This document shows positions 1 to 12,295 of a DNA stretch of 12,295 nucleotides, in pieces. A program made the translations under genes and the position numbers. This stretch comes from a virus (taxonomy: Duplodnaviria; Heunggongvirae; Uroviricota; Caudoviricetes): IMG/VR virus record IMGVR_UViG_2740892233_000003; one strand, written 5' to 3'. The notes under the pieces were generated by a model. The model worked only from the letters and a program-made list of their open reading frames with translations, was not told the DNA's origin and did not search any database. Positions within the stretch are counted from its first letter, which is position 1; each line of letters begins with the position of its first letter.

Positions 1-130
1 TCTTCGATTCATGACAGCCAATCATCTTTGCCAGACCGCGCTGGGTAAGCGTTGACAGGTTGATGAGTAAATCTGTTTCTGCGCGATCAATTTCTCGCTG
101 TGTTAGCTTGCTGTAACTTGCTTGTGCCAT
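1..130 (-). CDS. cII: CII-family transcriptional activator, N-terminal 43 codons only (runs off the window start)
   Basis: Reverse-strand translation from ATG at 130 gives MAQASYSKLTQREIDRAETDLLINLSTLTQRGLAKMIGCHESK, near-identical to the N-terminus of the complete CII-like ORF at 2299-2589. Lies downstream of cro and nutR as in lambda. Confidence 0.7.
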   Translation of the reverse strand, partial: MAQASYSKLTQREIDRAETDLLINLSTLTQRGLAKMIGCHESK

Positions 131-191
131 TTGTTAATTTTCCTATATTGATATATAGCGGCACACCCAGTGGATTTGCCGCTGATGTTTG

Positions 192-233
192 CTCACCCGG
201 TTAGAGGTGAAAGGCCAGAACTGTTAAAGAGCA
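192..233 (-). promoter_or_regulatory. nutR-like site of module 1 (boxA plus boxB hairpin) on the cro/cII transcript
   Basis: Reverse strand reads TGCTCTTTAACA (boxA-like) followed by TTCACCTCTAACCGGGTGAG, a stem-loop (UCACC / GGUGA). As I recall it, this matches the phi21-type boxB. Position between cro and cII is correct for nutR. Confidence 0.5.
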
Positions 234-239
234 ATTTAC

Positions 240-425
240 TTATGCCGCTTGGCGGTAAGCACTTTCTTGATACTTCAGGGCGCCAGCTGTAACGATTTCC
301 AATCGATAGGCGTCTTTCTCTGGGATAACTTCTTTCCACTGAGAGACTGCTGCATCGCTAATGCCTAGTGCTTTAGCAACAGCACGCTGGGTTCCGAAGT
401 GGTCAATAACATCTTTTTTGTACAT
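240..425 (-). CDS. cro: Cro repressor, P22-type (61 aa)
   Basis: Translation MYKKDVIDHFGTQRAVAKALGISDAAVSQWKEVIPEKDAYRLEIVTAGALKYQESAYRQAA matches my memory of P22 Cro almost residue for residue. Divergent from the c2 repressor across an operator region. Confidence 0.85.
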   Translation of the reverse strand: MYKKDVIDHFGTQRAVAKALGISDAAVSQWKEVIPEKDAYRLEIVTAGALKYQESAYRQAA

Positions 426-439
426 AGACTCGCTCCGAA

Positions 440-505
440 ATTAAAGAACACTTAAATTATCCACCAAAGGAATCTTAAGTCAAGTTTATTTAAGATGTCT
501 TAACT
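440..505. promoter_or_regulatory. OR operator/promoter region of module 1 (three P22-type 18-bp operators, pR/pRM)
   Basis: Three sites fit the P22 operator pattern ANTNAAG-N4-CTTNANT: 440-457 ATTAAAGAACACTTAAAT, 463-480 ACCAAAGGAATCTTAAGT, 488-505 ATTTAAGATGTCTTAACT. The last abuts the c2 start codon. Confidence 0.65.
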
Positions 506-1156
506 ATGAATACACAACTGATGGGTGAGCGTATTCGCGCTCGCAGAAAAGAACTCAAGATTAGGCAGGCTGCCCTTGGCAAGATGGTTGGCGTGTCTAA
601 TGTTGCTATTTCCCAATGGGAGCGATCTGAAACTGAGCCCAATGGCGAAAACCTATTGGCCTTAGCCAAGGCTTTGCAGTGCTCCCCTGATTACCTGTTG
701 AAAGGAGAGGATAGTCTTTCAAACATTGCCTATCACAGCAGGCATGATCCAAGAGGTTCGTATCCTCTAATTAGTTGGGTAAGCGCAGGATGTTGGATGG
801 AAGCTGTAGAGCCATATCATAGGCGTGCAATAGATAACTGGTACGACACAACGGTAGATTGTTCTGAAGACTCTTTTTGGCTCGACGTTAAAGGTGATTC
901 AATGACTGCCCCGGCAGGACTGAGTATTCCTGAAGGGATGATTATTCTCGTCGACCCAGAAGTCGAACCACGTAATGGAAAGCTGGTAGTCGCCAAACTT
1001 GAAGGAGAAAACGAGGCGACATTCAAAAAGTTAGTTATTGATGCCGGTAGAAAATTCCTGAAACCACTCAATCCACAATACCCAATGATTGAAATCAATG
1101 GGAACTGTAAAATCATTGGCGTTGTCGTTGATGCCAAGCTAGCAAACCTTCCTTAA
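506..1156 (+). CDS. c2: C2 repressor, P22-type, LexA/S24 peptidase family (216 aa)
   Basis: Translation MNTQLMGERIRARRKELKIRQAALGKMVGVSNVAISQWERSETEPNGENLLALAKALQC... is near-identical to my memory of P22 C2. N-terminal HTH, C-terminal S24 autocleavage domain with GDSM motif and catalytic Lys. Confidence 0.9.
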   Translation: MNTQLMGERIRARRKELKIRQAALGKMVGVSNVAISQWERSETEPNGENLLALAKALQCSPDYLLKGEDSLSNIAYHSRHDPRGSYPLISWVSAGCWMEAVEPYHRRAIDNWYDTTVDCSEDSFWLDVKGDSMTAPAGLSIPEGMIILVDPEVEPRNGKLVVAKLEGENEATFKKLVIDAGRKFLKPLNPQYPMIEINGNCKIIGVVVDAKLANLP

Positions 1157-1180
1157 GGGGCTTTCGCCCCTTTTTTATTT
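1157..1180 (+). terminator. Rho-independent terminator after c2
   Basis: GGGGC-tttc-GCCCC hairpin followed by TTTTTTATTT, directly after the c2 stop codon. Confidence 0.7.
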
Positions 1181-1220
1181 CCCGTTAAAAATCAAAGACA
1201 AACTAAATTCGCGCCCATAA

Positions 1221-1274
1221 AATTAAGTTTTCTTCAAAAATGCACTTGACCAAAAAATTAAGAGGTCTTAAATT
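1221..1274 (+). promoter_or_regulatory. OL operators and pL promoter of module 1
   Basis: P22-type operator-like sites AATTAAGTTTTCTTCAAA (1221-1238) and AATTAAGAGGTCTTAAAT (1256-1273). TTGACC -35 at 1246-1251 and TAAATT -10 at 1269-1274 with 17-bp spacing, reading toward N. Confidence 0.55.
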
Positions 1275-1320
1275 TAAGCCGTCAGCAGGAGGCTGGAAGC
1301 CAAACGGAACAGATTGGCAG

Positions 1321-1359
1321 GCTCTTTAACATCGACGAACTCTCAACCTAACCGTTGAG
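1321..1359 (+). promoter_or_regulatory. nutL-like site of module 1 (boxA GCTCTTTAACA plus boxB hairpin)
   Basis: boxA-like GCTCTTTAACA at 1321-1331. Hairpin CTCAAC-ctaacc-GTTGAG at 1342-1359, in the pL leader upstream of N. Confidence 0.55.
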
Positions 1360-1470
1360 ACCAGAACTTGAGTGGTTTTGGGGATGGCGCGAATTGCAGC
1401 TGCAAGACAGCGATCGAGAAGATAAGCACCTCGACGCGTCATGCGCCAAAGCCACTTAAAGGAGACCATC

Positions 1471-1776
1471 ATGGTAACCATTGTCTGGAAAGAATCCAAA
1501 GGTACGGCAAAAAGCCGCTACAAAGCTCGCAGAGCAGAACTTATTGCCGAGCGACGCAGTAATGAAGCACTGGCGCGAAAAATTGCGCTAAAGCTCTCTG
1601 GTTGCGTCAGAGCAGACAAAGCAGCATCACTAGGAAGCCTTTGCTGCAAGAAGAAAGAAGAAGTTGTTCGAAAAAATAGAAGTATTTATTACAAGGATTC
1701 AAACCCATTAGGAAACAAAATACATGCAGTCCAAAAAATAAAATTGTACAGTAAACTACCGTACGGTGCTTATTGA
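1471..1776 (+). CDS. N: N-type transcription antiterminator with phi21-like arginine-rich motif (101 aa)
   Basis: AGGAG 6 nt upstream of ATG 1471. Translation MVTIVWKESKGTAKSRYKARRAELIAERR... contains GTAKSRYKARRAELIAERR, which I recall as the phi21 N boxB-binding peptide. First gene after pL and nutL. The upstream ATG at 1441 has no ribosome-binding site. Confidence 0.75.
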   Translation: MVTIVWKESKGTAKSRYKARRAELIAERRSNEALARKIALKLSGCVRADKAASLGSLCCKKKEEVVRKNRSIYYKDSNPLGNKIHAVQKIKLYSKLPYGAY

Positions 1777-1784
1777 GTATGCTT

Positions 1785-2117
1785 ATGGTGAAAAAGACTA
1801 TTTATGTTAATCCTGACCGCGGACAAAACAGAAAAGTATCTGATAGAGGTCTTACATCTCGAGACAGGAGGAGAATAGCGAGATGGGAAAAGAGGATAGC
1901 ATATGCATTAAAAAACGGTGTAACACCTGGATTTAATGCTATAGATGACGGTCCTGAATATAAGATTAATGAAGACCCAATGGACAAAGTTGACAAAGCA
2001 TTAGCAACACCATTTCCTCGCGATGTCGAAAAAATTGAAGATGAAAAATATGAGGATGTAATGCACAGAGTTGTTAATCACGCTCACCAACGAAATCCAA
2101 ATAAAAAATGGTCATAG
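1785..2117 (+). CDS. nun: Nun-like transcription termination / phage exclusion factor (HK022 Nun homolog, 110 aa)
   Basis: Translation MVKKTIYVNPDRGQNRKVSDRGLTSRDRRRIARWEKRIAYALKNGV...HAHQRNPNKKWS. Arginine-rich motif SRDRRRIARWEKRIAYALK and the C-terminal KKWS tail (penultimate Trp) are the hallmarks of HK022 Nun as I remember it. Start is 8 nt after the N stop. Confidence 0.8.
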   Translation: MVKKTIYVNPDRGQNRKVSDRGLTSRDRRRIARWEKRIAYALKNGVTPGFNAIDDGPEYKINEDPMDKVDKALATPFPRDVEKIEDEKYEDVMHRVVNHAHQRNPNKKWS

Positions 2118-2137
2118 CCCACTTCGGTGGGTTTTTT
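2118..2137 (+). terminator. Rho-independent terminator after nun
   Basis: CCCAC-ttcg-GTGGG hairpin followed by TTTTTT, immediately after the stop codon. Confidence 0.7.
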
Positions 2138-2288
2138 ATTGGCTGAACTAACCTAATTTATTACAGCAAGCCACGCAGTGAAATGGGTGTGACTTGTGTT
2201 GGTCGCCAGAAAATGAAATTAGGCAGCAAACCACTTATTTGAGGTGAGATATGACAAAATCATGGAGCGTACCTTTTCCTGAATCAGN

Positions 2289-2298
2289 NNNNNNNNNC
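2289..2298. other. Run of 10 N (assembly gap or masked bases)
   Basis: Literal n characters. The flanks are not collinear: a + strand gene start (RBS GAGGTGA, ATG 2251) on the left, the 3' end of a - strand cII on the right. Confidence 0.95.
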
Positions 2299-2589
2299 CA
2301 TCTGGATTTGTTCAGAACGCTCGGTCTTGCACACCGGGCGTTTTTTATTGGTGAGTCCATCAAGCGCATACTTAAAAGCTCTGCTAATCGGACTGATGTC
2401 TGATGCCATTCCGAAAGCACACAAGACCGAAGCAATAAATCTCCAGTCCGTTCTGCTTATCTTCGATTCATGACAGCCAATCATCTTTGCCAGACCGCGC
2501 TGGGTAAGCGTTGACAGGTTGATAAGTAAATCTGTTTCTGCGCGATCAACATCACGCTGTGATAGTTTGCTGTAACTTGTTTGTTCCAT
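2299..2589 (-). CDS. cII: CII-family transcriptional activator, module 2 (C-terminal few codons and stop lost in the N run)
   Basis: Translation MEQTSYSKLSQRDVDRAETDLLINLSTLTQRGLAKMIGCHESKISRTDWRF...LTNKKRPVCKTERSEQIQM. The C-terminal NKKRP...TERSEQIQM matches the lambda CII C-terminus as I recall it. ATG at 2589. Confidence 0.75.
2460..2589. repeat. 130-bp near-identical copy of window positions 1-130 (cII 5' coding region)
   Basis: Direct comparison of the two stretches shows only a handful of mismatches. Both encode CII N-termini. Confidence 0.9.
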
Positions 2590-2674
2590 TTCTTAAGATT
2601 TCCAATAGTGAATAGCTAGTTGAAAGGTATGCGTGGAAACGCATATGGCCTTAGTTGGTCAGATATCTTGGAAC

Positions 2675-2720
2675 TCGCTTTTCAGCGACGTAGGACGAAT
2701 GTCCGTTGTTACAAAGAGCG
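2675..2720 (-). promoter_or_regulatory. nutR-like site of module 2 (boxA CGCTCTTTGTAACA plus boxB TCGCTGAAAAGCGA, read on the - strand)
   Basis: Reverse complement of 2707-2720 is CGCTCTTTGTAACA. Reverse complement of 2675-2688 is TCGCTGAAAAGCGA, a GAAAA-loop hairpin like lambda boxB. Lies between the cro-like gene and cII. Confidence 0.45.
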
Positions 2721-2727
2721 GGGTTAC

Positions 2728-2961
2728 TTATGCTGCTGATGCTCTACGCGATACGAACACCAGATTTTCCTTTTTCACAGGTTTATAACCCGTGAAATTA
2801 CGAGTGGCTTCTTCGATTGCATTCGCTTTATCTGGGGAAGCTCTTCGAAACCCATATACAATCTGATCAAGATAGCCAACTGAAGTATTCGCTAATGCGG
2901 CGAGTCGCTTCCATTCCTCACTAGAAGCCTCTTTTCGCCAGCGTAGTAGTTCATTACTCAT
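2728..2961 (-). CDS. Cro-like HTH DNA-binding regulator of module 2 (77 aa)
   Basis: Divergently placed from the repressor across an operator region. GGAGG ribosome-binding site upstream. Small HTH-like protein. Called by position and size, not by recognised sequence identity. Confidence 0.6.
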   Translation of the reverse strand: MSNELLRWRKEASSEEWKRLAALANTSVGYLDQIVYGFRRASPDKANAIEEATRNFTGYKPVKKENLVFVSRRASAA

Positions 2962-2970
2962 TAGTGCCTC

Positions 2971-3058
2971 CGTTTATCACACAGAGCGACTTTACCATTT
3001 TGATAAATAAAACGCAATGAAGATTTATCAAAATGCATATTTATCCATTTGCTAAATA
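2971..3058. promoter_or_regulatory. OR operator/promoter region of module 2 (TTTATCA-type half-sites)
   Basis: Repeated TTTATCA / TGATAAA half-sites. Perfect 11-bp inverted repeat TTTTGATAAAT (2998-3008) and ATTTATCAAAA (3023-3033). Further copies at 2973-2979 and 3040-3049. Confidence 0.45.
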
Positions 3059-3074
3059 GAGGGAGAATCGTGGG

Positions 3075-3779
3075 ATGGAAAACAAAGATATTCGCAAATC
3101 GAATCTGGCGTTTTTGCTAGATGAGCATAAAAAAATCGCGGGTAACACTAATGCAAGCTTTGCCGATAAGCTTGGAGTTAGCCCTTCTCAACTCACGCAA
3201 GTCTCCGGTGAAAAAAGCACTCGAAACATAGGGGATAAACTAGCAAGAAAATTCGAAGCCGCACTTGGGTTACCTAATGGGTGGCTTGATTTGGTACATG
3301 ATGTAACACCAATTGCATCATGCTCAGATTCTTTAACTTTTGTCGGTCAGGTAAGAAAAGGGTTAGTGCGCGTGGTTGGTGAGGCAATTCTTGGTGTTGA
3401 TGGTGCCATCGAGATGACCGAAGAGCGCGATGGGTGGCTCAATATTTATAGCGATGATCCAGATGCCTTTGGTCTTCGTGTGAAAGGAGACAGCATGTGG
3501 CCCAGAATAAAATCAGGAGAATATGTACTCATTGAGCCTAACACCAAAGTATTCCCGGGGGATGAGGTGTTTGTCAGAACTGTTGAAGGACACAACATGA
3601 TCAAAGTTCTTGGCTATGACAGAGATGGAGAATACCAATTTACAAGCATCAACCAGGACCACAGGCCAATAACGTTGCCTTATCATCAAGTAGCAAAGGT
3701 GGAGTATGTGGCTGGTATTCTGAAGCAATCTCGCCATCTGGATGACATCGAGGCAAGGGAGTGGCTGAAAAGTTCGTGA
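3075..3779 (+). CDS. cI: CI-type prophage repressor, LexA/S24 peptidase family (234 aa), different specificity from module 1
   Basis: GAGGGAG ribosome-binding site. N-terminal HTH region. C-terminal S24 domain with VKGDSMWPRIKSGEYVLIEP (Ser nucleophile in GDSM, Lys general base). Confidence 0.85.
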   Translation: MENKDIRKSNLAFLLDEHKKIAGNTNASFADKLGVSPSQLTQVSGEKSTRNIGDKLARKFEAALGLPNGWLDLVHDVTPIASCSDSLTFVGQVRKGLVRVVGEAILGVDGAIEMTEERDGWLNIYSDDPDAFGLRVKGDSMWPRIKSGEYVLIEPNTKVFPGDEVFVRTVEGHNMIKVLGYDRDGEYQFTSINQDHRPITLPYHQVAKVEYVAGILKQSRHLDDIEAREWLKSS

Positions 3780-4047
3780 CTTCATCGTCACATAGCTGGT
3801 AACCAGTGGCCTGAAGAGACGTTTGGGTGATGTGATAGAGATCATTATTCAATTCGATTGAGAAAAATCATCATAAGGTTTATATCCATTTATTAGATTT
3901 TATGTGTATAAATAGTTAAAAATGCACGATGTAGAGATATTTGTGCTTAACATCAATTAATCATTGCTAAATCGTGCTTATTGTTCAGAAATCGCCCAAG
4001 TCATATTGAAAATCTGTTGGCGAACACCTATATAAGGAGTATAGTTA

Positions 4048-4410
4048 GTGACCCAAAACGTATTGCCAATCAACAAGAGCTTGCATGACCGAGCTGTTGA
4101 TGAATTTAATCGTCTGCATGGAACAATGATTGGCGAGATTAGTGCAATGCTGAAAACAGCTAAAGTAGCGCCATTGGTGGATCTTCGTAAGAAAGATCCT
4201 ACCTTTTCGAACGTTGTCGCAGAATTACGGACATTCAGAGACGTATGTAATGCTCTGCTCCCATACTTTCGTGTAGATAAGACCAGCGAAATCGCTGTCA
4301 TCGATAAGTTACTTATACTGGCTAATGACCTGGCTCAAGCCATCGATGCTGACGATCCTGACGCATTGTGCGCAGCAATAGCAGCCCTTGATGTTGAGCC
4401 TTACATTTAA
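4048..4410 (+). CDS. Hypothetical protein (120 aa), first gene of a two-gene cassette in the repressor-to-pL slot
   Basis: GTG start at 4048 with AGGAG 8 nt upstream. No recognisable motif. Preceded by about 270 bp of AT-rich DNA. Sits where lambda carries rexAB. Confidence 0.55.
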   Translation: MTQNVLPINKSLHDRAVDEFNRLHGTMIGEISAMLKTAKVAPLVDLRKKDPTFSNVVAELRTFRDVCNALLPYFRVDKTSEIAVIDKLLILANDLAQAIDADDPDALCAAIAALDVEPYI

Positions 4411-4425
4411 ACGAGGGGAAAAAAA

Positions 4426-4554
4426 ATGACTAAAGCGTTTGACTATACTGCCGTTAGTAAGCTTTTGGCTGAAATGCGCGGATGTGTAGAGCGCGTTCAA
4501 AATCTACGCCGCGACTTTGAAGCTCACATCAATCATTCACAAAAAGCGGCTTGA
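4426..4554 (+). CDS. Small hypothetical protein (42 aa), second gene of the cassette
   Basis: GAGGGG ribosome-binding site, then ATG 4426. Translation MTKAFDYTAVSKLLAEMRGCVERVQNLRRDFEAHINHSQKAA. Starts 15 nt after the upstream stop and is followed by a terminator. Absent from the ORF track because it is under 60 aa. Confidence 0.4.
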   Translation: MTKAFDYTAVSKLLAEMRGCVERVQNLRRDFEAHINHSQKAA

Positions 4555-4573
4555 TACTTAAGTTAGATGACAG

Positions 4574-4602
4574 AACCCGGCCTCAGCGCCGGGTTTTCTT
4601 TG
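4574..4602 (+). terminator. Rho-independent terminator closing the two-gene cassette
   Basis: CCCGGC-ctcagc-GCCGGG hairpin followed by TTTTCTTTG. Confidence 0.65.
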
Positions 4603-4782
4603 CCTCACGATCCCCACACCTAATAACACCTTAACCAATTGTATTTATTGAAAAATTGATAGATACAACTTTCTAAACCACGAAATTCTGATCCCCCTCA
4701 AGTCTCTTCATTCCTTCTGATAAATTCCCGCAATCAAATAAAAAACCATAATAATCAACAGGATATTTGAAAACCCAAACAA

Positions 4783-4826
4783 TTTATCATTTTGCTATTG
4801 CCATCAGTTTATCATTTCGATAAAGT
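4783..4826 (+). promoter_or_regulatory. OL operators and pL promoter of module 2
   Basis: TTTATCATTT motif twice (4783-4794, 4808-4819), matching the OR half-sites of this module. -35 TTGCCA at 4798-4803 and -10 TAAAGT at 4821-4826, 17-bp spacer. The downstream leader is homologous to the module-1 pL leader. Confidence 0.45.
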
Positions 4827-4837
4827 CAACTCATCAG

Positions 4838-4887
4838 CAGGACGCTGTAAGCCAAACGGAGCAGACTGGCAGGCTCTTTAAACAACG
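4838..4887. repeat. Conserved pL leader / boxA segment shared with 1283-1332
   Basis: GCAGGA(g/c)GCTG(g/t)AAGCCAAACGGA(a/g)CAGA(t/c)TGGCAGGCTCTTTAA is shared between the two modules. Confidence 0.8.
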
Positions 4888-4918
4888 TCGAACACTCGAC
4901 TACGTGGCTGAAAAGCCA
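4872..4918 (+). promoter_or_regulatory. nutL-like site of module 2 (boxA GGCTCTTTAAACA plus boxB TGGCTGAAAAGCCA)
   Basis: boxA-like at 4872-4884. GAAAA-loop hairpin at 4905-4918. A second small hairpin GTCGA-acac-TCGAC lies between them at 4887-4900. Confidence 0.5.
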
Positions 4919-5016
4919 GATCACCCAACCACATAAGCTGTGGGATGCAATGCCGAAGTAACCGTCTCAGGAGGAGCTTCGAGATTGCATCGCCAAAGTT
5001 TATTCGGGAGGAATCT

Positions 5017-5289
5017 ATGTCCAGAAAAACAGAATTTAAAGGCACCGCAGCTTCTCGCCGTAGAGCTCGTCGCGCAAACCTGCAAAGTCAGGAGGCGATT
5101 AGCTCCGACAAGCTACACAGGCCAACCCCTTCACGAGTGGTCTTGCAATGCAAGCGCAAACCAGCAATGAGAGCAGAAGTTATAACTCTGACAACGTTGA
5201 CCAGAAAATATGAAGGTTCAACTTGTCTTCCAAACGTAGCCATTTACGCGGCAGGCTACCGGAAATCAAAACAACTGACAGCGAGGTGA
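5017..5289 (+). CDS. N: N-type antiterminator, P22 gp24-like (90 aa)
   Basis: GGGAGGA ribosome-binding site before ATG 5017. N-terminal arginine-rich motif TAASRRRARRANLQ. C-terminus ...AIYAAGYRKSKQLTAR resembles what I recall of the P22 gene 24 product. The upstream in-frame ATG at 4945 has no ribosome-binding site. Confidence 0.7.
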   Translation: MSRKTEFKGTAASRRRARRANLQSQEAISSDKLHRPTPSRVVLQCKRKPAMRAEVITLTTLTRKYEGSTCLPNVAIYAAGYRKSKQLTAR

Positions 5290-5312
5290 CGATCCCCCCC
5301 GCCGTAGAGGAA

Positions 5313-5852
5313 CTAAATTAGCTCATCAGCTTTACCAGCAAAGCGCATATAACACTCATGGAACCAGACGTCAGGTATAACAAATTTCTCTTTACCTGAC
5401 GCGCTGTAAGTCACACCTGAGCGATGGAGAAGGCCTTTTCTCATAAGAGATAAAGCGACCGGATCGCCGTGCTTAAGTACGATTTTGTTATTTGCCATAA
5501 CAGCAAATGCTAAAACCTCTTTTTCCTGAATACTCAGAGAATTGAATAGGCGCTCAGTCTCCACAATTACTTTAGCCTCATCTCTCTTACTGAGATATTT
5601 TTTATATCTGTCTGAAGATGCCAGAAATATAAACTCCATCCCCCTGTTCAGAACATAACTGATACACAAAAGCATTGCGTAATACATCCAGTGATCTGGA
5701 AGTATTTCGGGGTTCCTTATATCTACCCACTCTTTAATTGATGCTGGGGTGATTATTATCAAGGCAATTAAAATAATAAGCATATGAATTAACTGTTGTA
5801 GCGTAAGACCACGCAGGAAGAAACGTAATAGTTCCTGCCACCAGTTACTCAT
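5313..5852 (-). CDS. sieB: SieB-like superinfection exclusion membrane protein (179 aa)
   Basis: Encoded antisense to the pL operon, convergent with N, as sieB is in lambda and P22. Hydrophobic segments LIHMLIILIALIIITPA and YYAMLLCISYVL near the N-terminus. Size fits. Identification is positional and architectural. Confidence 0.55.
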   Translation of the reverse strand: MSNWWQELLRFFLRGLTLQQLIHMLIILIALIIITPASIKEWVDIRNPEILPDHWMYYAMLLCISYVLNRGMEFIFLASSDRYKKYLSKRDEAKVIVETERLFNSLSIQEKEVLAFAVMANNKIVLKHGDPVALSLMRKGLLHRSGVTYSASGKEKFVIPDVWFHECYMRFAGKADELI

Positions 5853-6070
5853 CGGTGAATCTCCATCATTCTCTCTGTAGGGGTGAATAGAGTTTATCCG
5901 ATTTCTCGCTGTAGGGGTACACGAGAACCACCGAGCCTGATGTGGTTAAAAGACAGGCATACGAATAAACACTGCACTGTGTATTCATTCCAACGAGTGA
6001 ATACACGGAGCAATGTCGCTCGTAACTAAACAGGAGCCGACTTGTTCTGATTATTGGAAATCTTCTTTGC

Positions 6071-6096
6071 CCTCCAGTGTGAGGGCAATTTTTTTG
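6071..6096 (+). terminator. Rho-independent terminator immediately upstream of a strong ribosome-binding site
   Basis: GCCCTC-cagtgt-GAGGGC hairpin, then A plus TTTTTTT, followed at once by GACGGAGGA and ATG 6108. Confidence 0.6.
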
Positions 6097-6215
6097 ACGG
6101 AGGATATATGAGTGAAGTAACAGATTTAGTTGTTATTGAAAAAGCAAATGCAATGACTGTAATTTAGTCTGCCGACCAGATTGAAGAAATTCTTCAAAAG
6201 GTTGAACGTGAAGTT

Positions 6216-7076
6216 ATGTCCTTTGTGCCTGATATCACAACGGCAAAGGGCAGAAAGGAGATCGCTTATCTGGCGTATAAAGTTGCGCAGACGAAAACAT
6301 ATCTCGATGGTCTTGGCAAAGACCTTGTTGCTGAACTGAAGGAAATTCCAAAGCTAATTGATGCTAACCGCAAGACAGTGCGCGATCGCCTTGATGAACT
6401 GAAAGCCAAGGCGCGCCAGCCTCTTACTGATTATGAGGAAGAACAGGCGCGGATTAAAGCCGAAGAAGAAGCTAAGGCAGCAGCTGAAGCTCTCGCAAAG
6501 CAAATTGAGTCTGACCATGAAATAGCGATTTTGATGGATCGCGAATTTGACCGCCAAAGAGAAGAGGCAAGACTCAAAGCGGAGCAGGAAAAGCGAGAGC
6601 ATGAAGAACGCTTAAAAAGAGAAGCTGAAGAGAAAGCCAGAGCTGAAGCCGAAGCAAAGGCAAAAGCCGAAATTGAAGCAGCAGCAAGGCGAGAAGCAGA
6701 AGCTAAGGCCGCAGAGGAACGTGCAGAGCGTGAACGCATTGAAGCCGAGCAACGAGCACAGCGCGAAGCAAAAGAGGCAGCAGAACGAGCTGAAAGAGAA
6801 AAGCATGCGGCAATTGAAGCAGAACGCCGTAAAGCACAGGAGGAGGCAGAACGAATCCTGCGCGAGGCTGAAGCAAAAGAGCAAGCCAGAATAGCAGAAG
6901 AAAAAAGAATCAAGGACGAAGAAGAGCGTAGAGCAAAGGATAAAGCTCACCGGAAAGAAGTAAATAACAAAATACTTGCTGACCTTATCAAGGTTGGCGC
7001 ATCAGAAGATGTTGCTAAAAATATCATAACAGCCATCGTAAAAGGCGAATTATTCGCAACAAAAATAACCTACTAA
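6216..7076 (+). CDS. Highly charged coiled-coil / low-complexity protein (286 aa as drawn); an in-frame upstream start at 6108 is cut by a TAG at 6165
   Basis: Long ORF with a central A/E/K/R-rich repeat region (KAEEEAKAAAEA..., AEAEAKAKAEIEAAARREAEAKAAEE...). The strong-RBS ATG at 6108 is in the same frame but separated by one amber codon. ATG 6216 has only a weak ribosome-binding site. Confidence 0.6.
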   Translation: MSFVPDITTAKGRKEIAYLAYKVAQTKTYLDGLGKDLVAELKEIPKLIDANRKTVRDRLDELKAKARQPLTDYEEEQARIKAEEEAKAAAEALAKQIESDHEIAILMDREFDRQREEARLKAEQEKREHEERLKREAEEKARAEAEAKAKAEIEAAARREAEAKAAEERAERERIEAEQRAQREAKEAAERAEREKHAAIEAERRKAQEEAERILREAEAKEQARIAEEKRIKDEEERRAKDKAHRKEVNNKILADLIKVGASEDVAKNIITAIVKGELFATKITY

Positions 7077-7100
7077 TAAAACCAACATAAGGAACCACCC

Positions 7101-7232
7101 ATGATTTACGCAATCGCGGGAGGCGCTCGCATGGGTGCCTTCCAATTAAATGAATCTTTACTTGAACGAATCACCCGTAAATTACGTGACGGATGGAAAA
7201 GAGTTGAGGTCTTATTATGCGCAATGAAATAG
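7101..7232 (+). CDS. cIII: CIII-like protein (FtsH inhibitor / CII stabiliser), copy 1 (43 aa)
   Basis: Translation MIYAIAGGARMGAFQLNESLLERITRKLRDGWKRVEVLLCAMK. The core ESLLERITRKLRDGWKR is identical to the lambda CIII central helix as I recall it. Confidence 0.7.
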   Translation: MIYAIAGGARMGAFQLNESLLERITRKLRDGWKRVEVLLCAMK

Positions 7233-7348
7233 CCATCAATCACCAGATGCTTCGTGCTGCACAGAACAAGGCAGTAATAGCCCGATTTATTGGTGATTCA
7301 AAAATGTGGCTTGAAGCAAATAAAGCGATGAAATCAGCTATCAACCTN
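7217..7348 (+). CDS. kil: Kil-like protein, copy 1 (3' end lost in the N run)
   Basis: Start overlaps the cIII stop. Translation MRNEIAINHQMLRAAQNKAVIARFIGDSKMWLEANKAMKSAINL... The IA.FIGD.KM segment resembles lambda Kil. Near-identical to the complete copy at 7895-8047. Confidence 0.55.
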
Positions 7349-7358
7349 NNNNNNNNNA
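7349..7358. other. Run of 10 N (assembly gap or masked bases)
   Basis: Literal n characters, inside a duplicated cIII-kil module. The right flank 7359-7388 repeats the terminator-tail and RBS cassette of 6078-6107. Confidence 0.95.
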
Positions 7359-7388
7359 TGTGAGGGCGATTTTTTTGACGGAGGAAAT

Positions 7389-7700
7389 ATGAAATTACGT
7401 GTCTGGCATATCCCGCAAGTACCTATGAAACCGTTCATTGCAGAAGTGGCAAGTGTTGAAGAGGGTGTTCGCCTGATGGGCGCACTGGCTGATTATGACG
7501 CCTTTCAGTATGACAACAACATCAAGCCTGATTACTGCAATGCTAACGGCCTTGAGATGTGGGATGAGAGCCTTACCGATGAAGATTTATCAGAGGTGGG
7601 GCTTACTGATCGCTGGGTGGATTGGTACAGCGAATGCCAATGTTACGACGACCCACGTAAATATCTCGAAAGCCTGAAAGAAGAAACATCAGCCGCCTAA
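7389..7700 (+). CDS. Hypothetical acidic protein (103 aa)
   Basis: GGAGGA ribosome-binding site and ATG 7389. Translation MKLRVWHIPQVPMKPFIAEV...WVDWYSECQCYDDPRKYLESLKEETSAA. No recognised family. Confidence 0.55.
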   Translation: MKLRVWHIPQVPMKPFIAEVASVEEGVRLMGALADYDAFQYDNNIKPDYCNANGLEMWDESLTDEDLSEVGLTDRWVDWYSECQCYDDPRKYLESLKEETSAA

Positions 7701-7775
7701 GCGCGGCTTTACCGCATACCAATAACGCTTCACTCGAGGCGTTTTCGTTATGCAATCAAATATAAGGAGTTACCC

Positions 7776-7910
7776 ATGATGCACTTTCAGCTCGCGGGTA
7801 GCGGCGTCATGTCCGCTTTCTACCCGCACGAATCTGAATTATCACGCCGAGTTAAACAATTAATTAGAGCAGCAAAGAAACAACTGGAGGCGTTATGCGC
7901 AATGAAATAG
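7776..7910 (+). CDS. CIII-like protein, divergent copy 2 (44 aa)
   Basis: AGGAG ribosome-binding site. Translation MMHFQLAGSGVMSAFYPHESELSRRVKQLIRAAKKQLEALCAMK. Same architecture and the same C-terminal LCAMK overlap with kil as copy 1, but the core is diverged. Confidence 0.5.
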   Translation: MMHFQLAGSGVMSAFYPHESELSRRVKQLIRAAKKQLEALCAMK

Positions 7911-8047
7911 CCATTAATCACCAGATGCTTCGTGCGGCACAAAACAAAGCAGTAATAGCCAGATTTATTGGTGATTCAAAAATGTGGCTTGAAGCAAATA
8001 AAGCGATGAAATCAGCTATCAACCTTCCGTGGTATCGCAGGAAATGA
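7895..8047 (+). CDS. kil: Kil-like protein, complete copy 2 (50 aa)
   Basis: Start overlaps the stop of the cIII-like ORF. Translation MRNEIAINHQMLRAAQNKAVIARFIGDSKMWLEANKAMKSAINLPWYRRK. Confidence 0.65.
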   Translation: MRNEIAINHQMLRAAQNKAVIARFIGDSKMWLEANKAMKSAINLPWYRRK

Positions 8048-8214
8048 GTTTCACAGATAACTGGTCAGACGAAGAATTCATTCGTCAGATGAAAGAATTA
8101 ATCGGTAACGAAGGAGATATTCATGTCACTTGCAACCACAGTGAAGGAGAGCAAGTTACAGAGACGCATGTACACGCAGCAGGCGTTAATGTATCGCCAG
8201 AAGGGAGATCGTGA
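8044..8214 (+). CDS. Small hypothetical protein (56 aa) between kil and erf; the position of P22 arf
   Basis: ATG 8044 overlaps the kil stop (ATGA). Acidic protein MSFTDNWSDEEFIRQMKELIGNEGDIHV... Called by position only. A GTG start at 8029 is also possible. Confidence 0.4.
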   Translation: MSFTDNWSDEEFIRQMKELIGNEGDIHVTCNHSEGEQVTETHVHAAGVNVSPEGRS

Positions 8215-8303
8215 AGGTGTTCGCGTATTTTTAAATGCGGCAAAGACTGAAGTATTAAATCAGCGTTATTTCCTTGGGCCATGCCCATTCTGAGAACAAA
8301 CAT

Positions 8304-8909
8304 ATGAGCAAAGACTTTTACGCAAGACTGGCAGCTATTCAGGAGAACTTGAACGCGCCAAAGAATCAGTACAACTCATTCGGTAAATATAAATACAGAA
8401 GCTGCGAAGACATTCTTGAAGGCGTTAAGCCGTTACTGAATGGCCTGTTTTTATCAATCAGCGATGAAGTTGTGTTGATTGGTGATCGGTATTATGTGAA
8501 AGCCACGGCAACTATTACCGATGGCGAAAACAGTCATACGGCAACCGCTCTTGCACGAGAGGAAGAAAGCAAGAAAGGAATGGATTCTGCACAAGTTACG
8601 GGAGCTACAAGCTCTTATGCACGCAAGTATTGCCTCAATGGTTTGTTCGGCATTGATGATGCGAAAGATGCAGATACCGACGAGCATAAACATCAGCAGA
8701 ACGCAGCAGCAAAGCAATCAAAACCATCACCTACACCTGAACAGGTTCTAAAAGCATTCACTGACGCAGCAATGCAGAAAAACACCGTAGAAGAGCTTAA
8801 ACAGGCGTTCGCCAAAGCGTGGAAGATGCTCGAAGGCACACCGGAGCAGCACAAAGCGCAGGACGTTTACAACATCAGACGAGACGAATTAGAAGGAGCT
8901 GCTGCTTAA
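8304..8909 (+). CDS. erf: Erf-family single-strand annealing recombinase (201 aa)
   Basis: Translation MSKDFYARLAAIQENLNAPKNQYNSFGKYKYRSCEDILEGVKPLL... is typical of the ERF family (P22 Erf-like). The start could instead be the upstream in-frame ATG at 8274. Confidence 0.8.
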   Translation: MSKDFYARLAAIQENLNAPKNQYNSFGKYKYRSCEDILEGVKPLLNGLFLSISDEVVLIGDRYYVKATATITDGENSHTATALAREEESKKGMDSAQVTGATSSYARKYCLNGLFGIDDAKDADTDEHKHQQNAAAKQSKPSPTPEQVLKAFTDAAMQKNTVEELKQAFAKAWKMLEGTPEQHKAQDVYNIRRDELEGAAA

Positions 8910-9292
8910 TGGCACATTCGATTACTGTAAGACTAAACAAGCCCGCAAGAGAGTTTCAGACCGGGGAAAATATCGGATTCAACATCCGTGCTGGCGTTCA
9001 GTATTACGATCGCCAGACAAAAAAGAAAGAATGGACAAACTACAGCGCCGTTGTATTTGCCAAGCCGGGAGCGCAAGCGGATTACTACCGTAGTGTTCTT
9101 GTTGAAGGTGGCATTGTGGAAATTACCGGAGAAAACATCAGGGTTGATGTTTATCAGGGGCAAAATGGTCAATCAATCACTCTTGAATTACTGAATGCAA
9201 AGATTGGATTTGCAGCTTCAGGAAATGGCCCGCAGCAGCAAAGTAGTAACCAGCAGAACACTCCTGTATACGACGATTCCATCCCATTCTGA
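8909..9292 (+). CDS. ssb: Single-stranded DNA-binding protein, SSB-like (127 aa)
   Basis: ATG overlaps the erf stop (TAATG). C-terminal acidic tail ...PVYDDSIPF is the SSB partner-binding tail signature. The Gln/Asn-rich linker before it is SSB-like. Confidence 0.6.
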   Translation: MAHSITVRLNKPAREFQTGENIGFNIRAGVQYYDRQTKKKEWTNYSAVVFAKPGAQADYYRSVLVEGGIVEITGENIRVDVYQGQNGQSITLELLNAKIGFAASGNGPQQQSSNQQNTPVYDDSIPF

Positions 9293-9315
9293 TTTAGAAA
9301 AATAAGGATTTAATT

Positions 9316-9609
9316 ATGCCAGCGCCTCTGTATGGTGCGGATGACCCACGCCGCTGTTCCGGCAATTCCGTATCGGAGGTGCTGGATAAATTCAGAAAAA
9401 ACTACGATCGGATAATGTCGCTACCGCAGGAAACGAAAGAGGAAAAGGAATTTCGCCATTGTATATGGCTTGCAGAGAAAGAAGAACGCGAGCGAATTTA
9501 CCAGACATCAATCCGACCATTCCGCAAAGCCACATATACCCACTTCCCTGAAATTGACCCGCGCCTGCGTAATTACCGCTCACGCTATGGCGCTATCAGT
9601 AATGACTGA
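9316..9609 (+). CDS. Hypothetical protein (97 aa)
   Basis: Ribosome-binding site and ATG 9316. Size and position after the recombination genes are reminiscent of P22 Abc2 (anti-RecBCD). I cannot confirm this from the sequence. Confidence 0.5.
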
Positions 9610-9619
9610 GGAATTTACC

Positions 9620-9784
9620 ATGAGAGGACTTGCATACAATCCCGGCATTCTTCCGGCAGAAATGATTATTCGCCAACGCGCAAAGCCAATGCCATCGAGA
9701 GAGGAATTGCTTAAGAGAAAGAGTTTCGGTTCTGTTAATGACAACAAATATCTGAATGCGATGTGGCGGAGTGGGAAGAAATGA
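9620..9784 (+). CDS. Small hypothetical protein (54 aa)
   Basis: GAGGA ribosome-binding site 7 nt upstream of ATG 9620. Basic protein. Its stop overlaps the next start. Confidence 0.4.
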
Positions 9785-10338
9785 AACAAATGACACTAAT
9801 TGAGATGGATGGTTTTCTGAAAGGTAAATGCATCCCAAGTGATTTAAAGGTTGACGAAACAAACGATGAATATCTTGTCCGTAAGTTCGGTGAACTTGAA
9901 TCAAAACTAGAAACGGCGTTGCGGGAGTGTCGTTCTGCTGGAATCACGATTGATAACCTTGAGGCTAAATGCGCGAAGATGGCTGCTGAAAATTCCTCGC
10001 TTAAGCAATCTGAGAAGGAATTTAATGACTTTTGTCGTGAGGAGTTTAGCGAATGGGAAGATGATATTACTGAAACCCCAGCCACCGATGCTTTTCTGGC
10101 TGAAGTGAAGACTGAAGCACGCAAGGAGGGCGCTTACTTTGTGGCGAACAGAATGCTGGCTGCCTGGGAAGCTGGTTTTATTGATGATACTGCGAAGAAC
10201 GCCGCTGATATTGCCCGGATGATTCTTACCTCTACTGAGTTTATGGCCAATGCGCCGGAAGGCGATTTTGACCGTTCATTCTCTGATGGCGTTCTCGAAG
10301 ATATCGCCGAACAGCTTCGTAAAGGAGTCATCCAATGA
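9781..10338 (+). CDS. Hypothetical acidic phage early protein (185 aa)
   Basis: ATG 9781 with GGAG upstream, overlapping the previous stop (ATGA). The ORF-track start at 9763 is a GTG with no ribosome-binding site. Confidence 0.5.
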
Positions 10339-10892
10339 GCAAGATTGACTATCAGGCACTGCGTGAGGCGGCAGAGCGTGCAATTCCGGCAATGGAACGC
10401 CTGTTAATGTTGCCAGTTGATGATGATTTGTTAACTGAACAGGAACTTAAGGATTACGGTGTGGATATTGATGCGCTCAACGCCTTCAAATTTCTGACCG
10501 GGCCAGAAACCGTGCTGGCACTACTGGATGAACGGGAAAGAAACCAGCAATACATCAAACGCCGCGACCAGAAGAACGAGGATATTGCTCTTACGGTTGG
10601 GAAGCTGCGTGTTGAGCTTGAAGCCGTGCAGAAGACATCAGCGGCACGAATCGAAGCTATAGACCGCACTCACAAAATGTTCCAGCGTGAAAAAGATCGA
10701 GCCGATGCCGCAGAGAAGTGCATAGCAGAACTGTCTGCTAGCCACAGCAAATTGCGCGACACAATGGCTGGCATCCACAACACAATCCGAATGGATGGCG
10801 GCTATACGCCACTGGCAGCAATCCTTAACGCTGCTAAACGCGCATATGAAGAATCAGCAAGCGCAGCTGGCATTCGCATCAAAGGAGAGTGA
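10335..10892 (+). CDS. Hypothetical phage early protein, possibly Ea22-like (185 aa)
   Basis: AGGAG ribosome-binding site. ATG overlaps the upstream stop. Predicted coiled-coil centre. The N-terminus [14 protein letters not shown] resembles prophage Ea22-like proteins as I recall them, with low certainty. Confidence 0.45.
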   Translation: MSKIDYQALREAAERAIPAMERLLMLPVDDDLLTEQELKDYGVDIDALNAFKFLTGPETVLALLDERERNQQYIKRRDQKNEDIALTVGKLRVELEAVQKTSAARIEAIDRTHKMFQREKDRADAAEKCIAELSASHSKLRDTMAGIHNTIRMDGGYTPLAAILNAAKRAYEESASAAGIRIKGE

Positions 10893-10893
10893 T

Positions 10894-11511
10894 ATGAGCA
10901 CTATCACTAAAGAACGTATCGAATTGTTCATTAAATCCCCGCTTGATAACGGACTTACTAGTGGCGAACAAATGGAACTGGCACGGATTGCTCTGGCATC
11001 GCTGGAAGCAAAACCAATAGGTGCATTCCACATTGCAGAACAGCAAGTTGACGGCACAAGTGACTACCTCAAGGATGGAGAATGGCCTATTGATAATGGA
11101 ATTATTGAGGTCTACGCCGCTCCGCCAGTACCGGTAGTACCTGCTGCATTACCTGAGAACGACGATGAGGACGGGCATGACATTGATTATCTTGATCCAT
11201 CTGAAGTTTACGCGCTTGGGCGAACAGCTGGCTGGAACGCCTGCCGCGCCGCCATGCTTCAGGGTAAATCAGAACAACCACAAAACGCACAACAAAATAT
11301 TCCGGAAAATATTCCCGGTGGCAACTCTCCGGTAACTCCGGATGGTTGGGTTATGGTGCCGAAGGAGTTAACCCCGGAAATGATGAGAGCCGTTCAGATT
11401 AGAAGTGAGCTTGGAGGGTATGCTACTTCCAATCTATCTGGTGCATACAATATGTTTTCTGAGTTCTGGAATGTTGCTGTCTCAGCTGCGCCTAAGGTGG
11501 ATGATTTATGA
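10894..11511 (+). CDS. Hypothetical protein (205 aa)
   Basis: AAAGGAGAG ribosome-binding site 6 nt before ATG 10894. The ORF-track start at 10795 overlaps the previous gene and has no ribosome-binding site. Confidence 0.5.
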   Translation: MSTITKERIELFIKSPLDNGLTSGEQMELARIALASLEAKPIGAFHIAEQQVDGTSDYLKDGEWPIDNGIIEVYAAPPVPVVPAALPENDDEDGHDIDYLDPSEVYALGRTAGWNACRAAMLQGKSEQPQNAQQNIPENIPGGNSPVTPDGWVMVPKELTPEMMRAVQIRSELGGYATSNLSGAYNMFSEFWNVAVSAAPKVDDL

Positions 11512-11810
11512 ATCTATATCGCTGCCCATTCTGTGGTTCCACTGTGCTTAACATCGGATACTCATTCAGTATCAGAGGGAAAATGCGCTATGTGTCATGC
11601 AAATGTGGTGCCCAAGGACCAGAAAAACGAACTAGATCTGAAGCGATTTCTTCATGGAATAGTCGAATGAAAGTATGGGTTTATGATCCAGAAACAATAT
11701 TAAACGTTGAAGAGCGCAGGAGAACAGAAGTCTATATTCATAACCTTAATGAAGATGGATTTGCACCAGTGCTTGTAAAGGCTACTCCGCAGGAGGTTAA
11801 CCGTGGCTAA
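11508..11810 (+). CDS. Lar-family-like zinc-ribbon protein (putative restriction alleviation), 100 aa
   Basis: N-terminal CPFCGS ... CKCGA zinc-ribbon motif followed by AISSWNSR, which resembles the Lar restriction-alleviation family. Start overlaps the previous stop (ATGA). Confidence 0.5.
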   Translation: MNLYRCPFCGSTVLNIGYSFSIRGKMRYVSCKCGAQGPEKRTRSEAISSWNSRMKVWVYDPETILNVEERRRTEVYIHNLNEDGFAPVLVKATPQEVNRG

Positions 11811-12087
11811 CCTACAACTTGCCGTCAAAGGTGAATACTTCGATGCCATGATTCGAGGAGAGAAAACGGAAGAGTATCGCCTGTGTAATGACTATTGGAA
11901 TAAGCGAATTATGTTCCGGGAGTATGACCGCCTGATTATCACAAAGGGATATCCGAAGCGCGACGATTCCAGCCGCAGAATTGATGTTCCGTATGACGGA
12001 TATGAAATCAAGACAATCACACATCCGCACTTCGGTGATAAACCGGTAAAGGTGTTCGCGATAAAGGTGAATATCGGCAATGAATAA
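11803..12087 (+). CDS. Hypothetical protein, possibly ASCH/PUA-like fold (94 aa)
   Basis: GTG start with AGGAGG 6 nt upstream, overlapping the previous stop. The fold guess rests on a weak pattern only. Confidence 0.45.
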   Translation: MANLQLAVKGEYFDAMIRGEKTEEYRLCNDYWNKRIMFREYDRLIITKGYPKRDDSSRRIDVPYDGYEIKTITHPHFGDKPVKVFAIKVNIGNE

Positions 12088-12159
12088 CAATCCTCGCACT
12101 CGCGGGGATTTCTTTTATCTGAACTCGCTACGGCGGATTTTGTTTTATGGAGATGATAA

Positions 12160-12295
12160 ATGCACTTCCGAGTCACAGGTGAATGGAATGGAGAACCATT
12201 CAACAGAGTTATCGAAGCAGAGAACATCAATGACTGCTATGACCACTGGATGATATGGGCGCAGATAGCACATGCAGACGTAACCAATATTCGAA
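12160..12295 (+). CDS. Hypothetical protein, 5' part only (runs off the window end)
   Basis: GGAGA ribosome-binding site before ATG 12160. Open frame to the window end (MHFRVTGEWNGEPFNRVIEAENINDCYDHWMIWAQIAHADVTNIR...). Confidence 0.4.
   Translation, partial: MHFRVTGEWNGEPFNRVIEAENINDCYDHWMIWAQIAHADVTNIR

Follow-up and report, generated by a model that had tools for sequence, protein, structure and literature searches.

The immunity region of Escherichia phage 21, imm21, has the order cII-cro-OR-cI-OL-pL-nutL-N, where OR and OL are the right and left operators, and is also carried by lambda imm21, the DE3 prophage of BL21(DE3), mEp235 and HK629. A different immunity region has been described in the Shiga toxin (Stx) phage vB_EcoS_ST2-8624 (hereafter ST2-8624) and is found as well in Stx2a_WGPS9 and many Stx1a phages. 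Strains of the enterohaemorrhagic Escherichia coli (EHEC) type are already known to carry several heteroimmune lambdoid prophages with long near-identical blocks, and short reads have been found unable to resolve paralogous prophage sequence in EHEC (PMC5359411). The viral record IMGVR_UViG_2740892233_000003, whose whole stretch of 12,295 nucleotides (nt) is called the window here, contains one complete module of each of these two immunity types, set in the same orientation on either side of a run of Ns. Our analysis indicates that this double-immunity arrangement is almost certainly an assembly artefact, a scaffold chimera of separate prophages from one polylysogenic E. coli. The source would be a strain of the EHEC or atypical enteropathogenic (aEPEC) type, O26/O111/O103-like. 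We read the arrangement as an artefact because no closed genome is collinear with the window, the two modules lie megabases apart in real chromosomes, the contigs end at repeat edges with a constant 64-nt footprint, and genes are cut at the join.

Layout of the window

The window consists of three pieces, S1 to S3, which derive from three prophages, P1 to P3, and are separated by two runs of exactly 10 N each.

1-2287: S1, a contig from prophage P1 (imm21 type), which lies beside yfaA/gyrA in closed genomes
2288-2297: first N spacer, an artificial join of S1 and S2 whose flanks are adjacent in none of the closed genomes searched
2298-7347: S2, a contig from prophage P2, integrated at ybhC (lambda att side)
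7348-7357: second N spacer, joining S2 and S3
7358-12295: S3, a contig with its start in the third prophage, P3, on the torI/int side, and its end in sequence of the P2 type

A preliminary description of this DNA had reported two complete lambdoid immunity modules of different specificity across an N run, a join that was not collinear, and two stretches shared between the modules. All of this is borne out, apart from the position of the N run, which had been given as 2289-2298 and is off by one base. At the join, the start of a plus-strand open reading frame (ORF; 2251-2287, 37 nt of 471) meets a minus-strand cII that lacks its last 8 nt. Self-comparison of the window recovers the shared cII stretch (1-137 versus 2460-2596, 93% identical) and the shared pL leader (1269-1329 versus 4821-4881, 85% identical). 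A composition profile of the window has no informative break at the joins. Since both outer ends carry the 64-nt footprint described below, the window is probably one whole scaffold.

Location of the pieces in closed genomes

The three pieces and the whole window were searched against 5,426 complete E. coli genomes. In none of these was 80% or more of the window found in one place, and none was collinear with it. The best places cover 78% of the window and contain S2 followed directly by the equivalent of 7893-12295, with only the short cII repeat of S1. Taken singly, the pieces are easily found. S1 is present at full length and 100% identity in NZ_CP074961.1 (2372511-2374797) and in many O26:H11, O111:H11 and related genomes, and S2 is present at full length in 68 genomes, with 100% identity in NZ_CP074961.1 (3961468-3966517), NZ_AP027159.1 (894316-899365) and some 60 others. 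In closed genomes of EHEC O26:H11/O111:H11, such as those of strains 2313 (NZ_AP027159.1), 01_3327 (NZ_CP074961.1) and 11368 (NC_013361.1), three separate prophages match S1, S2 and the start of S3 with 99.9-100% identity, but the pieces are not adjacent there.

The distance between the two modules was determined in the 27 genomes common to the best-60 lists of S1 and S2 (identity 99.9-100%). In these closed EHEC-type genomes S1 and S2 are separated by 1.59-2.32 Mb on the circular chromosome, and they lie on opposite strands in all 27. Their prophages also differ in gene order. The S1 prophage, adjoining yfaA/gyrA, reads ren-P-O-cII-cro-cI-N-...-471-nt ORF-DUF2528-cIII-kil-gam-bet-exo-...-xis-int, and the ORF that the window truncates is uncut there (14251-14721 of L001, the closed-genome reference stretch holding S1). 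The S2 prophage, adjoining ybhC, reads ren-P-O-cII-cro-cI-...-N-sieB-tolA-like-cIII-kil-erf-...-xis-int. In closed genomes, what follows S2 directly at the position of the second join is the counterpart of 8026 and beyond; 7358-7892 is missing at this point.

Over its first 703 nt, S3 matches a third prophage with 100% identity. This prophage possesses a cII, a cro and an XRE-type repressor of its own, and its end lies at torI/int. In the O26:H11 strain 11368 this prophage lies about 169 kb from the S1 prophage, and the closed strain 2313 holds all three prophages. We considered S3 as a continuation of the S1 prophage and rejected this, as S1 leads into the lambda Red genes gam-bet-exo and S3 carries erf. 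Strain 11368 was likewise rejected as a single reference for all pieces, its ybhC prophage being without the whole immunity module, and strains 2313 and 01_3327 took its place.

Repeats and contig ends

In strain 2313, the three prophages share long repeats. P1 and P2 have 2,572 nt in common (95.9% identity; ren-P-O-cII), P1 and P3 have 696 nt (98.9%; containing the 471-nt ORF), and P3 and P2 have 2,084 nt (96.9%; kil-erf onwards). All four internal contig ends of the window fall within one of these repeats.

The outer and inner ends follow a common rule. The window starts 64 nt before the first difference between the two cII copies (1-64 is identical to 2460-2523). S1 ends exactly 64 nt past the last P1/P3 difference, S2 exactly 64 nt past its last difference from the S3 copy (7284-7347 is identical to 7962-8025), and the window itself exactly 64 nt past 12231, the last difference from the P3 copy. 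The two internal left ends fall on distinguishing bases: the first base of S2 is the first that distinguishes P2 from P1, and S3 begins on a base in which P3 differs from the P2 copy at 6077. For two of the six end checks (the window start and the S2 end) the window itself is sufficient; the others use closed-genome copies.

A constant tail of 64 nt points to a de Bruijn graph with k = 65, in which a unique contig extends k-1 bases beyond the last base that distinguishes it, and left ends placed on a distinguishing base fit an output that writes appended nodes without their first k-1 bases. From this we infer an assembler of the de Bruijn type, Velvet-like, run at k = 65. The window shares with other short-read de Bruijn scaffold misjoins the N spacers, the ends at repeat edges, the constant k-1 overlap and the origin of its parts at distant loci. 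It differs in one notable point only, namely that the linearised arms are complete immunity modules and so mimic a double-immunity phage.

Origin of the double-immunity arrangement

The preliminary description had left two explanations side by side, two related prophages scaffolded together through shared repeats or a real tandem or recombinant prophage. The 27 closed genomes, the lack of any collinear one and the 64-nt footprint strongly support the chimera, although three prophages have been mixed and not two. In such a chimera, the near-identical blocks of the mosaic lambdoid prophages (ren-P-O-cII, the 471-nt ORF and kil-erf) would have been collapsed by the assembler. The unique immunity modules would then have become parallel arms between shared nodes, and the scaffolder would have put these arms in series with 10-N spacers. 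On the left, S1 and S2 would both be bounded by the collapsed sequence shared by P1 and P2; on the right, both would be bounded by shared sequence leading towards S3. S1 would be linked to S3 via the P1/P3 repeat (8324-9019 of L007, the P3 reference stretch, in which S3 starts at 9001), and S2 via the kil repeat. A scaffolder that saw two pieces both upstream of S3 may simply have placed one after the other.

Each module alone would be a textbook lambdoid switch, with a LexA-like, self-cleaving S24 repressor acting on a tripartite OR and OL, a divergent cro with cII behind it, and pL-nutL-N for antitermination. In the real chromosome, immunity to two phage types would come from two separate prophages and not from one element.

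Several points weigh against this explanation. We infer the placement of the right end of S1 beside the left end of S2, and no repeat directly linking these two ends is known. The closed genomes stand in for the source strain and are not that strain itself, and the chimera has been deduced from sequence. The exact junction, N run included, had no match in a collection of viral contigs or in one of genome contigs; as an N in the search pattern proved to match an N in a sequence, the scaffold is probably missing from both. The attribution to a Velvet-like assembler relies on the output format of Velvet, in which gaps shorter than 10 bp are presumably written as 10 Ns and later nodes without their first k-1 bases; a literature search on this "10 Ns" convention found nothing relevant. 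The conclusion that the scaffold is a chimera does not depend on the attribution to Velvet.

It is very improbable that the chimera arose in a mixed sample, such as a metagenome, a virome or a contaminated culture, with pieces contributed by more than one strain or by free phages. No single closed prophage matches S3 end to end (99.35% to P3, 99.7% to P2-type sequence), as a mixture might produce. Nevertheless, one genome suffices, since strain 2313 holds P1, P2 and P3; S1 and S2 occur together, at the high identity given above, in at least 27 closed genomes, and nothing in the window needs a second strain.

Still harder to sustain is the reading that the join is real and that a composite or tandem prophage carries two heteroimmune modules, oriented alike and at a distance of about 2.5 kb, deriving double immunity from one element. 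Both modules are indeed complete and similarly oriented, and lambdoid prophages do recombine via shared blocks, as illustrated by a natural P3/P2-type mosaic in the closed strain 99_0288. Against this stand the lack of a collinear genome and the megabase separation on opposite strands in 27 of 27 closed genomes, which leave the tandem or recombinant alternative of the preliminary description unsupported. The junction itself is 10 Ns and not uninterrupted sequence. A real join would fuse codon 12 of the 471-nt ORF to the cII 3' end at a point without homology, whereas the nearest homology between P1 and P2 lies elsewhere, in O-cII, and homologous recombination would place the joint within a shared stretch. 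Tandem integration would, from the lambdoid gene order seen, be expected to separate the two immunity regions by int/att and over 30 kb of late genes, and all contig ends carry the 64-nt graph footprint. As for a product of illegitimate recombination, with the imm21 module (cII'-cro-cI-N) directly upstream of the ST2-8624-type module in one prophage and the N run hiding a few bases, it would be a single element with two heteroimmune repressors, and we give it next to no credence.

The scaffold chimera carries a caution for related data. Short-read scaffolds of genomes with several mosaic prophages can set alternative modules in series and create apparent double-immunity or duplicated-regulator phages that have no real existence. 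Three cheap checks apply to finds that span N runs: whether the sequences flanking the Ns recur within the same scaffold, whether the exactly shared sequence at contig ends has a constant length of k-1, and whether closed relatives have the pieces at loci far from each other. These three checks settled the present case, and they can be automated.

Module 1 is an imm21 region

The features of S1 are as follows (aa, amino acids).

1-130, minus strand: 5' part of the P1 cII, truncated where the scaffold begins; equivalent to L001 12001-12130, within a CII annotated at 11834-12130
240-425, minus strand: cro of the phage 21 type; Pfam P22_Cro (E 5.7e-28), 61/61 aa identical to phage 21 Cro
440-457, 463-480 and 488-505: OR of imm21, three 18-bp operators found as pattern matches; phage 21, in which these operators are annotated, has an OR region of 100% identity
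483 to 456, minus strand: pR-like promoter overlapping OR, from a promoter scan
506-1156, plus strand: cI repressor of the phage 21 type, 216 aa; Pfam HTH_3 and Peptidase_S24, no difference from the phage 21 reading frame (216/216 aa)
1192-1209 (weak), 1221-1238 and 1256-1273: OL of imm21, mapped from the OL1-3 annotation of phage 21; the OL/pL/boxA/boxB region is 99% identical
1246-1274, plus strand: pL-like promoter overlapping the last OL site, from a promoter scan
1321-1328 (boxA) and 1341-1360 (boxB hairpin), plus strand: nutL of the phage 21 type, mapped from the phage 21 annotation
1471-1776, plus strand: N antiterminator, of the phage 21 type at its N-terminus; coding sequence annotated in closed genomes
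2251-2287, plus strand: start of the 471-nt ORF (WP_000167595.1), cut by the contig end

The DNA from 131 to 1470 is 98.7% identical to phage 21 and to the other imm21 carriers named at the outset. As judged by these identities, module 1 is the already known immunity region of phage 21, with which it shares its gene order. The operator pattern ANTNAAG-N4-CTTNANT has exact matches at 440-457, 488-505 and 1256-1273 (0.01 expected by chance) and matches with one mismatch at 463-480 and 1221-1238, and these sites are precisely those that the phage 21 annotation gives as OR and OL. Two further one-mismatch matches lie outside the module, at 7145-7162 and 9171-9188; with 0.7 expected by chance, they are probably not operators. 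A terminator is predicted 3' of the repressor gene, and the predicted fold of the boxB hairpin has -8 kcal/mol, as expected for the phage 21 boxB.

The N protein of module 1 is 80% identical to that of phage 21 overall. Residues 1-57, including the arginine-rich motif, are identical and the remainder is divergent. Since identity stops after residue 57, a mosaic boundary lies within the N gene. The genes downstream of N are not those of phage 21 either, and module 1, unlike phage 21, is a resident prophage module of EHEC-type chromosomes.

The preliminary description had called module 1 P22-type. This is correct for the operator pattern and the P22_Cro family of its Cro, features it has in common with immC (C2/Cro) of Salmonella phage P22, and phage 21 Cro is itself annotated as P22-Cro-like. 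The specificity is that of imm21 instead, with the DNA identity given above and 100% identity of repressor and Cro. Among the best 15 matches to module 1 DNA, those at 98.6-98.7% are all phage 21-type Escherichia phages, and the fourteenth and fifteenth (85.3%) are Escherichia phages as well. No Salmonella phage record is among these 15, against 34 Salmonella phage matches overall.

Module 2 is of the ST2-8624 type

The features of S2 around the second switch are listed below, with positions in L002 referring to the closed-genome reference stretch holding S2.

2298-2589, minus strand: cII of P2, without its last 8 nt; Pfam Phage_CII (E 5.9e-35), gene at L002 5993-6292 with S2 starting at L002 6001
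2728-2961, minus strand: Cro of the ST2-8624 type, 77 aa; agrees with the annotated ST2-8624 Cro at 75/77 aa and has no match in Pfam
2993-3009, 3019-3035 and 3042-3058: OR, mapped from the operators annotated in ST2-8624 (KU238070.1)
3075-3779, plus strand: CI repressor, 234 aa; Pfam Peptidase_S24 (E 3.8e-16), 233/234 aa identical to CI of ST2-8624
4783-4826: OL/pL, comprising two TTTATCA sites (4783 and 4808), a perfect palindrome (4808-4824) and a pL-like promoter (4798-4826)
4821-4881, plus strand: pL leader, similar to that of module 1 as noted above and ending in a boxA placed by analogy with the phage 21 annotation
5017-5289, plus strand: N antiterminator; Pfam N_peptide (E 8e-32), annotated coding sequence at L002 8720-8992
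5313-5852, minus strand: sieB (superinfection exclusion); Pfam SieB (E 1.5e-19), RefSeq annotation

The OR region is 95% identical over 126 nt to oR1-oR3 of ST2-8624, with oR1 and oR3 nearly unchanged. By these similarities the CI, Cro and OR of module 2 are the set already known from ST2-8624, and the Peptidase_S24 match places the repressor, as a prediction, in the LexA-like self-cleaving S24 type. The TTTATCA-type operators, the separate protein in the Cro position and the separate S24 repressor that had been proposed for this module were all recovered. The window contains 11 copies of TTTATCA where 2.9 are expected, and six of them cluster at 2973-3030 and 4718-4814; TTTATCA-type sites overall extend over 2973-3056 and 4718-4824. 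A 17-bp form, TTTATC-N5-GATAAA, occurs at 2991-3007, 3040-3056 and 4808-4824. RNA folding of the leader gave two boxB candidates, 4887-4900 and 4905-4918, neither of them clear.

The likeness to ST2-8624 does not extend through the whole module. Only 62% of the window from 2590 to 5020 can be aligned, and the genes between CI and N, pL, and N itself differ. An stx gene was not seen in the examined stretch of the ybhC prophage that carries S2.

Similarity between the repressors of module 1 and module 2 is confined to the S24 core (34% identity over 61 aa). Because they resemble each other in this core only, the two modules would be heteroimmune, with different specificities.

Mosaic structure of S3

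The left part of S3 (7358-8716) is identical to P3 of strains 11368 and 2313, and the ybhC prophage of strain 11368 has a sequence identical to the right part (9349-12295). The switch from P3 to P2 falls inside a 71-nt exactly shared stretch (8646-8716) within the erf gene. The natural P3/P2-type mosaic of strain 99_0288 has its switch elsewhere, at about 9910-9966. To judge from these matches, S3 may have arisen by real recombination or from a wrong path taken by the assembler.

Variation in the ybhC prophage and minor features

In strain 11368, the ybhC prophage (NC_013361.1 899084-899564) has a 3,081-nt deletion that removes the equivalent of 2552-5632. It fuses a partial sieB to a partial cII, with loss of cro, the repressor, both operators and N. 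The immunity module of this prophage is intact in other closed strains. In about ten closed genomes, an inserted IS600, a different element of the IS3 family or ISVsa5 divides the match to S2 into two parts, and the S2-equivalent region of the ybhC prophage is a recurrent target of insertion sequences (IS).

The ren-P-O-cII block shared by the P1 and ybhC prophages measures 2.6 kb and is 96% identical in the reference stretches (L006 16371-18926 versus L008 4758-7317). Inverted and about 2 Mb apart in 27 of 27 genomes, it is a possible substrate for large inversions. Large chromosomal inversions of this kind are reported for O157 prophages (PMC8743559).

At the left edge of S2, a strong terminator-like hairpin with a T run (2314-2344, plus strand) is found opposite the cII 3' end, in antisense orientation; its position and look are those of the lambda oop RNA terminator. 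A search of the whole window with Rfam at the gathering threshold gave no match, and hence no library support for oop or nut RNAs.

The gene at 6108-7076 encodes a Glu/Ala/Lys/Arg-rich "TolA-like" protein. It has internal repeats of 27-37 nt within 6462-6906 and an in-frame TAG at codon 20 (6165-6167). The stop is not a sequencing error of the scaffold, because it is also present in closed genomes that are 100% identical to S2, whose annotation lists this gene as a pseudogene carrying an internal stop.

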